A DNA stretch of 45,476 nucleotides from Promethearchaeota archaeon (GTDB lineage Archaea; Asgardarchaeota; Lokiarchaeia; Sigyniarchaeales; SOKP01), in NCBI GenBank assembly GCA_048941015.1, contig JBHLNZ010000022.1, positions 1,874-47,349 of the forward strand, given 5' to 3'. The notes under the pieces were generated by a model, which was not told the DNA's origin, did not search any database, and saw nothing but the letters and a program-made list of their open reading frames with translations. Made by a program: the position numbers and the translations under genes. Shown piece after piece: positions 22,246 through 26,868 of the stretch; positions within the stretch are counted from its first letter, which is position 1; every line of letters starts with the position of its first letter.

Positions 22246-23484
22246 ATGAAGGATAATTCTATTAAAGAAGATCTTGCAGATAATACAAAAAATAAAATCA
22301 ATCAAAAAGAATCCTTATCAGATTCATTAAAACCAAATGACTTATCATTAACTTCTCAATTAATAAAAAAATATGGACTTAACCCTGCAAAAACACCAGT
22401 CCTTTTAAAATACAATGCTTATAGACGGATGGTTGGTTATGCAATTCGATATGCAAGTGAAGATATACCAACTAAATATTGGCGTGAAGTTTATGGAATT
22501 TTAATTGGTTCGGTGGAAAATAACCAAGAAGTGATAGTTAAGGACGCAATTCCAATGGTTGTAGGAGATAGAGCCGGAGTTAAATATGAAAACAAACAAT
22601 ATGTTGATATGGCTCAAATTGATGAGTCTATTCATGAAAGATCAATAAGGGATAAACGAAGTGATTTTATAGTCGGATGGTGGCATACTCACCCCAGTTT
22701 TGGGTTCTTTTATTCACCAATTGATTGTCTTACTCAATTAGGTTATCAAATTCCAAATCCATTCGCGGTAGGATTGATTTTTGATCATTGCGAGAAACTT
22801 TCAGATAAATATTACCTAGGCGTTGCAGGTTTAAGATTAATGAATCCTGAACATGGAACATTATCAACATACAATTTGATCGAGCTTAAACCTGAATTTG
22901 AAGCAAAAAAGATGGTAGATAAAGTTAATAAAGTTATAAAAGAGGTAAATAAAGAAATAAATAAAATTTTAAAAGAATTAAAATATATCGAGGAAACCCT
23001 TCGCAAAAAAGCATTAGCTAAGCTACAAAAAAATTATGGTTTAATGCTTATACCTAAAAGAGATATTAAAGTAACAGCCAATGAAGAAGAAGCTGAAGAT
23101 GATGAAGAATTTCTTTATGAATGGGATCCAGATTTTTTTAAAAAAAGTTATCGTATTCCTAAATTTAGAGAAAAAATAGAAAATGAGATAAAAAAGTATG
23201 AAGATATTTTACTAGATTTTAAAAAATCAAATGATATCAAGATCTTTGAACAGAAAAAGGAAAGATACAGTAAAAAAATTCGATCTCTTATGAGTAAACC
23301 TAATGATTGGTATAATAAAATAATGGATGACTTTACTAAACGTATTGAGATAATTTCTCCTTATTTCGATTATTTAGATACCGATGAAAGAAAAATAATT
23401 GAATATTTTGAAAGCAGAATCACCGAATATAATAAAATTTTAGATAATTTAAATAATAGAGCAGAATTTAACCTTAAAGATTAA
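22246..23484 (+). CDS. JAMM/MPN+ metalloprotease (Rpn11/CSN5-like) with long helical C-terminus
   Basis: EVYGILIG...VGWWHTHPSFGFFYSPID: intact E, HxH, S and D residues. Confidence 0.88.
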   Translation: MKDNSIKEDLADNTKNKINQKESLSDSLKPNDLSLTSQLIKKYGLNPAKTPVLLKYNAYRRMVGYAIRYASEDIPTKYWREVYGILIGSVENNQEVIVKDAIPMVVGDRAGVKYENKQYVDMAQIDESIHERSIRDKRSDFIVGWWHTHPSFGFFYSPIDCLTQLGYQIPNPFAVGLIFDHCEKLSDKYYLGVAGLRLMNPEHGTLSTYNLIELKPEFEAKKMVDKVNKVIKEVNKEINKILKELKYIEETLRKKALAKLQKNYGLMLIPKRDIKVTANEEEAEDDEEFLYEWDPDFFKKSYRIPKFREKIENEIKKYEDILLDFKKSNDIKIFEQKKERYSKKIRSLMSKPNDWYNKIMDDFTKRIEIISPYFDYLDTDERKIIEYFESRITEYNKILDNLNNRAEFNLKD

Positions 23485-23616
23485 ATAGGATTAAACTTTA
23501 AAAAGTATATTAAAAGAACCATAAAAAATTAGTTAATTTAATATTATTTAAAAGATAATTATATTTAGACTTCTTTTAAAAGAATCTAGATTAAGTTTAT
23601 TCTATGTGGTATTTTC

Positions 23617-23940
23617 ATGCCTAATGATACAACATTTATAATAAAGAATCGATCTGATAAAGATAAAACTATTAAAAATGCTATTTTTGCGTTTTCTGGT
23701 GGAACTAAGTCATTATTAATAAAAGGTGAAGGACAAGAAATATCTACTGCAGTAGAGGTTGCAGAAATTTTAAAAAACCGTATGTATCCCTCATTAGAAA
23801 TTGCAAATGTTGAATTAGGAAGTCGCCCTTTCTTTAGAAACAGAAATCGCAGATATAGCAAACAAAATTATAAAAATAATCGAAATAATAATGATTTAAT
23901 ATCTAAAATAGAAATAACACTTTCAAAATCTAATATCTGA
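23617..23940 (+). CDS. Alba-family DNA/RNA-binding protein
   Basis: IKGEGQEISTAVEVAEILKNR, VELGS and ISKIEITL. Confidence 0.85.
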   Translation: MPNDTTFIIKNRSDKDKTIKNAIFAFSGGTKSLLIKGEGQEISTAVEVAEILKNRMYPSLEIANVELGSRPFFRNRNRRYSKQNYKNNRNNNDLISKIEITLSKSNI

Positions 23941-24964: not shown

Positions 24965-25363
24965 CTATGTATTTAAAGAAGCTTTAGTAAATTTTGTATT
25001 TAATCCATTTTTTGCTTGAAAGAATAATTCTAGGTTTTCAATAATTTTTCCAATTTTATTAACTTTATTCGGCATTTCAATATTTTTTAATATAATTATC
25101 AGTTCATCACTTTTGGGATTATAAATAATGTCTCCTTTCTCAACTTTATTCAAAGCTTTTGGATTCAAGCCTTTAAATATTTGAGGTCCTGGAAGGGTCC
25201 AATAATCTTTCTTACCAAAACTGAATCGCCCTCTTAAAACAATTGGCATCTTATTTAAAATTGCATCAGCAGATAATGGTGCTAAGTGGCGAATTATCAC
25301 TCCCTTAGCTGTTCCAATTCCGAATAAATCAATTTTAATTGGGATGTTTCCGACATTAGACAT
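24965..25363 (-). CDS. Cyclophilin-like fold protein (TM1367/DUF369-like)
   Basis: RHLAPLSADAILNKMP, VEKGDIIYNP and VNKIGKI. Confidence 0.7.
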   Translation of the reverse strand: MSNVGNIPIKIDLFGIGTAKGVIIRHLAPLSADAILNKMPIVLRGRFSFGKKDYWTLPGPQIFKGLNPKALNKVEKGDIIYNPKSDELIIILKNIEMPNKVNKIGKIIENLELFFQAKNGLNTKFTKASLNT

Positions 25364-25471
25364 TTTTTATAAATAAAATACATCCACATATTTATATTAT
25401 TTCAATAAAGAAAAAATGCTTAATCCGACAAATTATTATAAATCTTCTGATTTATATTGAATTACATTAAT

Positions 25472-25486
25472 AAAAAGATTTAAATA
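25472..25486 (+). promoter_or_regulatory. BRE/TATA box for the putative ncRNA
   Basis: AAAAAGA followed by TTTAAATA (25479-25486), about 23 nt before the 5' strand of the terminal helix. Confidence 0.55.
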
Positions 25487-25507
25487 TTCATTTCGCCATT
25501 TATCTAT

Positions 25508-25997
25508 TGGACAATAGTAAAGCATTGGTTATAGATTCAACAATCCTTGTTAAACAATGATAAATTTTTAAACGTTGAATTAAATGATTCATCTTTCTGG
25601 ATTTTTTTTTTGACCAGAATATAATAAATACATTGATTTTTAAAAAAGATAAGTTTCCAATGTTCCTTAAGTGCCACAGAAGATTTAATTTTTACTTTAG
25701 ATCTTAAATACTTTAAATAATATAAGCACATGGGAGCACAATAATTTAGTACGTTAAAATACGTTATAATTTAAATAGCTTTTATAAAATACCTAGGAGC
25801 TAAGTTGCCTGTTCTCTTGTTGAATTGAGTAATTTTTTTTGATACACGAGACAGAGAAACATGACAATTTGACTTTCAAAAAAAATTATATAATATCACA
25901 ATAGGAGCTTTGAATCAGGATTTGGCTTCACGGGAGTAAAATAGTAAATATTCCTTTGAAACAATCTTTCTGAGCTACTCGAAGCTACTATTGTCCA
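25508..25997 (+). ncRNA. Putative large structured non-coding RNA (about 490 nt), family unassigned; partial RNase P-like motifs
   Basis: Perfect 12-bp end pairing TGGACAATAGTA/TACTATTGTCCA, several internal helices with G-U pairs, upstream TATA, downstream T-tract, and no credible ORF inside. Confidence 0.65.
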
Positions 25998-26868
25998 TCT
26001 TTTTTTTTCTTGAATTTAATAACATCAAATCATATTTATCATCGATGTCGTAAAATTCGAGAGCTGGATGTACTTCATAAGTTAAAATTTTTTGCCCACT
26101 TAATATCATAAAATTTAGTGCTTCACTAATAGTTTTTATTGGAAATTTACTTGATATTTCTTGAATATATTTTACAGAATAATAGTTTAGAAATAAAACT
26201 GGAATCATTAATTTAATATTTTGCTTTGAGGTGTCCTGTAATTCTGTTTTAATGATTTTTTTAAGGATAACTTCATTACAATCTTTTTTAGTTTTAATAA
26301 TAGAAAGGGATTTAGGAATTTTTTTGAAGAATTGTTCATATTTCTGCCTAACTGATCTTATATCTATTTTTTTAAAAAAAACAGCAGGGTAATTTTTTAT
26401 TAAGTTGAGGTTCAGAGATGCAATCTTGAAAATTTCTTTTAAAAGAACACTTTCAAAGATGGTGTCACATGGAAGTATGACGAAAAGATACTTCTTTTTA
26501 AACAGTTTAGCATTTCTAGTAAAACTTAAGAAAGAATAAATCGGTCCTTTTGTATATTCTAGTCCAGAATTAATGAAAATTAATTTGTCAGTTAGCGATT
26601 TATTATCGCTTAAATTGGCATTAAAATGTTCTTTTAGTTGAGAGCCTAAGTAACCAGTTATTATAACAATTTTTTGGATTCTAAGATTAGTTAATGTTAA
26701 AATTAAATAATCAATTATAGACCTGCCATTTAAAGTCGCAATTTGAATCAAAGATTTAGGTTTATCTTGAGAGAGATTTTTAATTCGGGTTCCTTTTCCC
26801 GCACAGGGGATTATAGCTATTAATTTTTCTTTTAACTTATTTTCTTGTGGTAACAATAGGATTTCCAT
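25975..26868 (-). CDS. NTP-transferase family nucleotidyltransferase
   Basis: AIIPCAGKGTRI, PKSL, LPCD and FYDIDD; start uncertain because it overlaps map. Confidence 0.8.
   Translation of the reverse strand: MEILLLPQENKLKEKLIAIIPCAGKGTRIKNLSQDKPKSLIQIATLNGRSIIDYLILTLTNLRIQKIVIITGYLGSQLKEHFNANLSDNKSLTDKLIFINSGLEYTKGPIYSFLSFTRNAKLFKKKYLFVILPCDTIFESVLLKEIFKIASLNLNLIKNYPAVFFKKIDIRSVRQKYEQFFKKIPKSLSIIKTKKDCNEVILKKIIKTELQDTSKQNIKLMIPVLFLNYYSVKYIQEISSKFPIKTISEALNFMILSGQKILTYEVHPALEFYDIDDKYDLMLLNSRKKKMDNSSFE
25998..26011 (+). terminator. Oligo-T terminator of the putative ncRNA
   Basis: TCTTTTTTTTTCTT immediately after the 3' strand of the terminal helix. Confidence 0.5.

Follow-up and report, generated by a model that had tools for sequence, protein, structure and literature searches.

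Positions 25508 to about 26000 on the plus strand of the analysed window, a 45,476-nucleotide stretch of DNA from a Promethearchaeota archaeon, in all probability (about 0.8) constitute a single-copy gene for a structured non-coding RNA of approximately 490 nt, which belongs to an undescribed RNA family that, within the genomes searched, is limited to a single family of Lokiarchaeia. An initial annotation had proposed an independently transcribed, stable and large structured RNA at this site, and this proposal is supported by an invariant promoter, invariant ends and an invariant terminator, by compensatory changes in the terminal helix P1, by the lack of a conserved open reading frame and by the lack of a match in Rfam. 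Transcription would start from a strong TTTAAATA promoter of the gene's own and would end at an oligo-T run. The 5' and 3' ends form the 12-bp helix P1. In the fold that we propose, an irregular hairpin of about 80 nt would stack onto this helix, an invariant GCAUUGG box would lie at the junction, and the middle of the molecule would comprise a domain built of helix, internal loop and helix together with two hairpins carrying U-rich loops.

The element resides in an ORF-free gap (25364-25974), in which the ORF list of the window contains no frame longer than 64 aa and which is indeed, as had been claimed, the largest such gap in the region. The reported 12-bp inverted repeat proved to be perfect (TGGACAATAGTA/TACTATTGTCCA; Table 1) and encloses an AT-rich spacer of 466 bp. 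The TATA box and the T-tract noted along with it are likewise present: the centre of the TTTAAATA box lies about 25 nt before 25508, and a T9 run (26000-26008) begins three bases past the 3' arm. Inverted repeat, box and T-run are kept in every relative examined. The distance between the end of the box and the 5' arm is 21 nt throughout, the only variant of the box being TTTATATA in a few species, and a T-rich run directly follows the 3' arm in all homologues. A TATA box at such spacing conforms to archaeal promoter geometry, and oligo-T terminates archaeal RNA polymerase. Judged from the TATA distance, the start site is predicted at about 25506-25510; the 3' end is predicted at the oligo-T run. 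The GC content of the element (27%) is no higher than that of its surroundings, a situation that is uncommon among stable structured RNAs and counts against an RNA gene.

Table 1. Features of the RNA gene and of its immediate surroundings, in window coordinates
Feature	Positions	Strand	Remarks
Upstream promoter element TTAATAA (putative role)	25467..25473	+	About -41 to -35; nearly invariant in the window's genus and in g18
TATA box TTTAAATA	25479..25486	+	Preceded by a purine-rich BRE-like stretch (25472-25478)
P1, 5' strand UGGACAAUAGUA	25508..25519	+	Perfect complement of 25986-25997; 9-bp core invariant
Invariant box GCAUUGG	25522..25528	+	Junction after P1; kept in all genera carrying the RNA
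Hairpin UUCUGG/CCAGAA	25595..25619	+	U10-rich loop 25601-25613; in the MFE fold
Central domain	25661..25738	+	Outer helix UGUUCC/GGAGCA (25661-66/25733-38), internal loop, inner helix GUGC/GCAC (25671-74/25726-29), variable tip
CUCUUGU...U8-loop hairpin...UGAUACACGAGACA	25814..25853	+	Small hairpin, with the U-run 25833-25840 as its loop, inside CUC/GAG and UGU/ACA
Junction strand CAAUAGGA, from P2 to the 3' hairpin (putative role)	25899..25906	+	Repeats CAAUAG of the 5' arm; nearly invariant
3' domain, long irregular hairpin stacked directly on P1	25907..25985	+	Pa GCUUUGA/UCGAAGC, Pb CAG/CUG, Pc UUCA/UGAA, Pd GGGAG/UUCCU
P1, 3' strand UACUAUUGUCCA	25986..25997	+	Pairs with 25508-25519
Convergent NTP-transferase gene (25975-26868), last codons and stop	25975..25997	-	Overlaps the 3' arm of the RNA
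Terminator, YY followed by the T9 run	25998..26008	+	T-rich run kept across homologues; 3' end predicted

The stop region of the convergent NTP-transferase gene (NTP297) overlaps the RNA by 23 nt in the window. Among relatives this relation varies from -30 to +36 nt, and it is therefore the RNA arm and not the tail of the protein that is conserved. The NTP-transferase ORF reads into the reverse complement of the RNA terminator and 3' arm and ends in ...KKKMDNSSFE; since in relatives its stop may fall up to 30 nt inside or up to 36 nt outside the RNA, this tail is a by-product of the RNA sequence.

Pairing of the two arms as helix P1 is proven by at least five independent compensatory events. 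P1 is 91% paired in the family alignment of 82 sequences, and the pair 25518/25987 (position +5), which is the next one inward of the core, is represented by UA (38), GC (25), AU (6), GU (3), UG (2) and AC (1). A C-G pair is replaced by U-A in genus g20 (GGAUAAUAG/CUAUUAUCC) and a G-C pair by A-U in g24 (AGACAAUAG/CUAUUGUCU), while g22 exhibits AGAAG/CUUCU. In eleven species of g18 the 5' arm lacks the inner AGG and has gained an outer extension (GAAAAGGACAAU/AUUGUCCUUUUC), that is the helix is shifted outward. The conserved helices also fix the plus strand, because G-U combinations outnumber A-C combinations about 3:1 (360 versus 123), in agreement with the earlier statement that non-Watson-Crick positions are G-U pairs on this strand. 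Helix Pa of the 3' hairpin, with 161 G-U versus 12 A-C, is unable to form on the minus strand.

These data also bear on the possibility that the site acts at the DNA level, the inverted repeats being paired protein sites (ORB-like origin boxes or operators) on either side of an AT-rich spacer, whose arms change together since one protein reads both. A perfect inverted repeat around an AT-rich 466-bp spacer, conservation of the arm sequence itself beyond mere complementarity and a GC content that is not raised are all compatible with such an element. We consider it very unlikely nevertheless. Mismatches in the arms are mostly of the G-U type on the plus strand, and Pa keeps two U-G pairs that would be C-A mismatches in the other sense. 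Furthermore, a canonical TATA box at a fixed distance of 21 nt, a T-run right after the 3' arm, several conserved internal helices and the outward shift of the helix along both arms in one subclade speak against it. Archaeal origins are marked by ORB or mini-ORB repeats beside orc1/cdc6 and by a switch in strand skew. No Orc1/Cdc6 gene is present among the seven flanking genes, no strand-skew switch occurs at the site, and the arms do not appear to resemble the ORB consensus.

The element is present as one copy in the 3.59-Mb genome. BLAST found it in all 36 sampled congeners with its overall length kept, the most similar stretches being the promoter with the 5' end and the last 200 nt. Among 37 distinct sequences of the genus the RNA measures 345-515 nt, the value of 345 nt stemming from a short contig and all others amounting to at least 412 nt; each of the 37 has the TATA box at 21 nt, invariant arms and a T-run thereafter. 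A covariance model of the 3' hairpin, R1, was searched in 151 genomes of the order and matched 93 of the 131 genomes of the window's own family (g1, 37/41; g18, 48/53; g22, 5/8; the single g29 genome; single weak matches in g23 and g25). Where R1 failed, synteny disclosed a version of 460-630 nt in g19, g20, g21 and g24, which is located between the same two genes and has promoter, arms, GCAUUGG box and T-run in common with the other copies. On the other hand, R1 gave no match in the 19 genomes of families f2 to f4, four of which are single-contig genomes (three of f2, one of f4), and altogether no copy of the element turned up in 26 genomes from six other families. At the cyc132 homologues of three complete genomes from outside the family no gap is present, and matches to the pattern GAYAATAG-N-GCATTGG in other families of the class came without promoter or 3' arm and in several cases look coding. 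As far as searched, the RNA is thus confined to one family of Lokiarchaeia (Promethearchaeia), in which it occurs in at least eight genera. It had been put forward as a possible new Asgard RNA class; the novelty of the class holds in view of the missing Rfam match, whereas an Asgard-wide occurrence does not.

Synteny is strict in 82 loci, where the RNA occupies the same interval between cyc132 on one side and NTP297 followed by map on the other, all three genes being oriented opposite to it. The wider order comprises genes for a VTT-domain membrane protein and the cyclophilin-like protein (24965-25363 in the window) upstream and for the NTP-transferase, methionine aminopeptidase and AspRS downstream, again all in the orientation opposite to that of the RNA. 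As no co-oriented gene lies downstream, the RNA is not a leader. The NTP-transferases of different species share only 30-40% identity and the RNA arms remain unchanged; likewise, promoter, paired ends and terminator are invariant in about 90 homologues with neighbouring proteins at 30-70% identity.

Two further interpretations, a mobile-element relic of the MITE type and a small protein-coding gene, can be weighed against this distribution and carry next to no probability. Terminal inverted repeats and a suitable size are indeed reminiscent of a MITE, but there is one copy per genome and it occupies the same syntenic site in eight genera; the MITE was rejected on these grounds. A coding function could be read from an ORF of 64 aa on the minus strand, which is, however, missing from the closest relative (82% identical). 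In the homologues the longest ORFs (median 44 aa) vary in strand and are not conserved, and multiples of 3 are not favoured among the gap lengths. Accordingly, a protein-coding gene was dismissed for want of a conserved ORF.

The RNA matches no class represented in Rfam 15. No match at gathering score was obtained by cmscan for the 45-kb window, only chance-level matches of 13-23 bits appeared at E≤10 for positions 25300-26100, and nine homologous loci from seven genera did not match any family at E≤0.5. The families covered include OLE, ROOL, GOLLD, raiA, HEARO, snoRNAs, introns and riboswitches. This outcome is consistent with the earlier claim that no known class is involved; the more specific statements about tRNA and SRP RNA are borne out as well, since ARAGORN finds no tRNA and a helix-8 motif was not seen by eye in the conserved sequences. 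A full-text literature search did not retrieve a description of this RNA, and a scan of metagenomes (contigs of at least 1 kb) returned none recognisable as a transcript.

A divergent or permuted version of a universal RNA, that is RNase P/MRP or SRP RNA, had to be considered separately. Identification with RNase P RNA was tempting, since RF00373 (gathering cut-off 84 bits) is silent both at 25300-26100 and throughout the 95%-complete genome, even at E≤10, and since size, paired ends and a multi-helix junction loosely resemble this molecule. Archaeal RNase P RNA is a stable RNA of 300-450 nt with several bound proteins. It shares with the element the single copy and the paired ends (P1) that lead into a multi-helix junction. 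However, 26 of the 36 congeners possess both the element and, at a separate locus, a canonical RNase P RNA (115-142 bits), as exemplified by genome G032 with RNase P RNA on contig C97 and the element on C80. Candidacy as RNase P RNA was abandoned on this account, and its absence from the present genome is most likely an assembly gap. Inspection by eye revealed no motifs similar to CR-I/CR-V (helix P4) among the family-wide invariant motifs. Archaeal SRP (7S) RNA (RF01857), an abundant RNP scaffold of about 300 nt whose internal loops bind protein, can be likened to the element with regard to its paired ends and long irregular helices. It was rejected as well: the genome has its SRP RNA elsewhere (C45:33640-33875, L017; 68.9 bits) and RF01857 is silent at the element. 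In addition, cmscan gave no RNase P, MRP or SRP match at E≤10 in the region or at E≤0.5 in the nine loci. Overall, we regard a divergent or permuted copy of any of these RNAs as extremely improbable. The SRP RNA on C45 itself stays below the cut-off of 96.5 bits and covers model positions 67-307 only; measured against the Rfam model, SRP RNA in this lineage seems to have diverged or to be truncated at its 5' end.

Guide RNAs are recognised by box C (RUGAUGA) and by box D (CUGA) next to a terminal stem, or by ACA located 3 nt from the 3' end. A C/D-box or H/ACA guide was discarded after inspection by eye, as a conserved C box is missing and the 3' end is an arm of P1; CUGA occurs near the 3' end in g1 and is absent in g18. 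K-turn, loop-E, C/D and H/ACA motifs were not found by eye. The best predicted duplexes with pre-16S and pre-23S rRNA of the congener G008 did not surpass those of shuffled RNA, with -209 and -205 kcal/mol versus -209 ± 7.5 and -212 ± 4.4 kcal/mol for the shuffled sequences, in a crude, unrestricted comparison with which short guide pairings remain compatible.

As for the internal structure, the plus strand folds better than shuffled sequences (minimum free energy -105.4 kcal/mol, z = -4.36), and the minus strand reaches -90.5 kcal/mol (z = -2.73). Values of z between -2.5 and -6 were obtained for the plus strand in eight of ten homologues (six genera), the remaining two folding no better than shuffles. 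The helices discussed here were defined with the help of anchors and a hand-made model. RNAalifold yielded almost no consensus structure for the 3' 200 nt of a plain MAFFT alignment, and when the entire RNA was analysed with ribosum scoring, little more than P1 and the 3' hairpin survived, together with a few other pairs. Apart from P1, covariation is thin, the other conserved helices being mostly invariant in sequence. The motifs that are invariant family-wide are GGACAAUAG, GCAUUGG, GAGACA, GGAGC and CUAUUGUCC.

The ten internal helices that the initial annotation had read by eye were tested on the 82-sequence alignment in comparison with slid controls. About four of them are conserved and more than half are not. 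The two helices of the central domain, TGTTCC/GGAGCA (76% paired versus 44-51% when slid) and GTGC/GCAC (81% versus 16-55%), are conserved. Conservation of GGGAGTA/TATTCCT is limited to its GGA/UCC core. For TTCTGG/CCAGAA, a hairpin with a U-rich loop can be seen by eye at the same place in other clades, albeit with a different stem; column by column, support is absent. ATTCAAC/GTTGAAT, CATTGG/CCAATG, AAGATTTAA/TTAGATCTT, TAGCTTTTA/TAGGAGCTA, TGATTCA/TGAATCA and AGGATT/AATCTT perform no better than slid controls (38-57%). Conversely, Pa (GCTTTGA/TCGAAGC, 25907-13/25979-85), with 95% pairing the best internal helix, had been overlooked, and the same is true for CUC/GAG and UGU/ACA around the U8-loop hairpin and for the invariant GCAUUGG box.

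R1 scores the 3' hairpin at 35-96 bits in 87 loci. In 87 distinct sequences 79.8% of its cells are paired versus 29-52% in slid controls and covariation amounts to 0.175 versus 0.02-0.07, although the underlying alignment was fitted to R1, which favours this model. RNAalifold pairs in the 25814-25853 hairpin are retained family-wide (74/78, 65/78, 74/78, 67/77 and 74/77), and the inner pair of the U8-loop hairpin varies between U-A, G-C and C-G from clade to clade, as judged by eye. A helix P2, in which AUUG of the GCAUUGG box would pair with CAAU (25899-25902), is 83% paired, but its two sides are nearly invariant and the pairing is therefore unproven. As an alternative, the internal CAAUAG might pair with the 3' arm.

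The two internal U-runs raise the question whether the full-length molecule is the main product. Transcription might stop at U10 (25604-13) or U8 (25833-40) to give several short RNAs with a rare long form, or the transcript might act in cis or as an antisense RNA on the NTP-transferase mRNA. The internal T-runs match the terminal one in length and might bring archaeal RNA polymerase to a premature stop; they are also about 50 times denser than runs of T8 or longer in the sense strand of long ORFs (0.085/kb), and the RNA shares 23 nt with the NTP297 stop region. Yet the long-range covariation of P1 requires both ends in one molecule, and the best-conserved parts, the 3' hairpin and P1, lie beyond both U-runs. 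In addition, read-through must be common, because 186 runs of T8 or longer are found genome-wide in the sense strand of long ORFs, and the extent of the overlap with NTP297 is variable (-30 to +36 nt). Taken together, we rate short RNAs or antisense action as quite improbable.

Provided that the RNA of about 490 nt is real, its most likely role would be that of a stable, trans-acting scaffold in a ribonucleoprotein particle, an idea to which we give somewhat less than even odds. Proteins would recognise the sequence-invariant platform formed by P1 and the junction as well as the conserved internal loops: the arm sequence, the GCAUUGG box, the AGGA junction strand and several internal loops are kept beyond what pairing demands, as is typical of sites recognised by proteins. 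The U-rich loops might be bound by Sm-like proteins, whose archaeal members bind oligo-U. In common with Sm/LSm-bound RNAs, namely snRNA-type Sm sites and the ligands of archaeal SmAP, the RNA has conserved single-stranded U-runs flanked by helices (AAU(8)GA, 25831-25842; AU(10)GA, 25601-25613). It differs from them in that the U-rich loops, which are candidate sites, do not occur in every genus (g20 is A-rich instead) and in that no snRNA model matches. Going further, the RNA might be the core of an abundant, family-specific RNP of a novel kind, perhaps bound by Sm-like proteins, involved in RNA processing and foreshadowing snRNPs, or it might form an RNA-only assembly similar to ROOL, GOLLD or OLE; we deem these proposals improbable.

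Large conserved non-coding RNAs are rare, and nearly all those that have been solved are fundamental, as is evident from the ribosome, RNase P, SRP and tmRNA. OLE, ROOL and GOLLD are unsolved and count among the best-known open problems of RNA biology. To our knowledge, all of these large orphan RNAs are bacterial. The RNA described in this work would represent a large orphan RNA from archaea and, in particular, from the Asgard archaea, to which eukaryotes are most closely related. It is passed on vertically as a single copy, with a terminal helix unchanged across at least eight genera. The resemblance to OLE, ROOL and GOLLD comprises a length of several hundred nucleotides, many conserved helices together with conserved unpaired sequence, own transcription, which is predicted here, lineage restriction and discovery by comparative genomics ahead of function. 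On the other hand, no sequence or structure match exists in Rfam 15, the RNA is archaeal with an archaeal TATA promoter, it is bound to one fixed chromosomal site instead of phage or mobile contexts, its GC content is much lower and its covariation far thinner. The bacterial representatives are large orphan structured ncRNAs, and RNA-only oligomers have been shown (PMC12286853). Should the present RNA turn out to be a self-assembling ornate RNA of this type, it would be the first archaeal example. Its occurrence is limited to a single uncultivated family; a ready basis for further work is provided by predicted gene ends, a partial structure and a collection of about 90 homologues to which about 80 copies from metagenomes can be added.

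Several observations were made along the way. Upstream of the RNA and on the same strand, the window encodes a JAB/MPN-domain protein (412 aa) and Alba (107 aa; 23617-23940) at 22246-23940, and several relatives show the same synteny of these genes with the RNA. Alba, which binds RNA and DNA, might be a partner of the RNA. Public records with the 3' motif comprise MAGs assigned to Promethearchaeota/Promethearchaeia (Lokiarchaeia) plus seven chance bacterial matches. The submitter taxonomy of public copies is unreliable: DATKTW010000163.1 (L065), labelled 'Candidatus Nanopelagicaceae bacterium', carries this Lokiarchaeial locus, and other copies are labelled Hermod-, Hod- or Odinarchaeota. The bin of congener G014 contains two diverged copies on contigs C57 (L010) and C117 (L044); two strains are likelier than a duplication, because contamination of the bin amounts to 9%.

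In a genome of genus g23 (G099:C32, L174) the gap beside the cyclophilin-like gene contains neither the RNA nor the NTP-transferase gene. A candidate 5' end (GACAATAG...GCATTGG) is situated about 9 kb from this gap on the same contig, which suggests that the RNA may have been relocated in g23. Finally, the 23S rRNA of congener G008 (L293:3743-3751) contains CUAUUGUCC, a 9-mer identical to the 3' arm of the RNA. The 5' arm could in principle pair with this stretch, a coincidence that may be due to chance. The G008 23S gene has a length of 3368 nt versus 2987 positions in the model, which suggests that it carries expansion segments.
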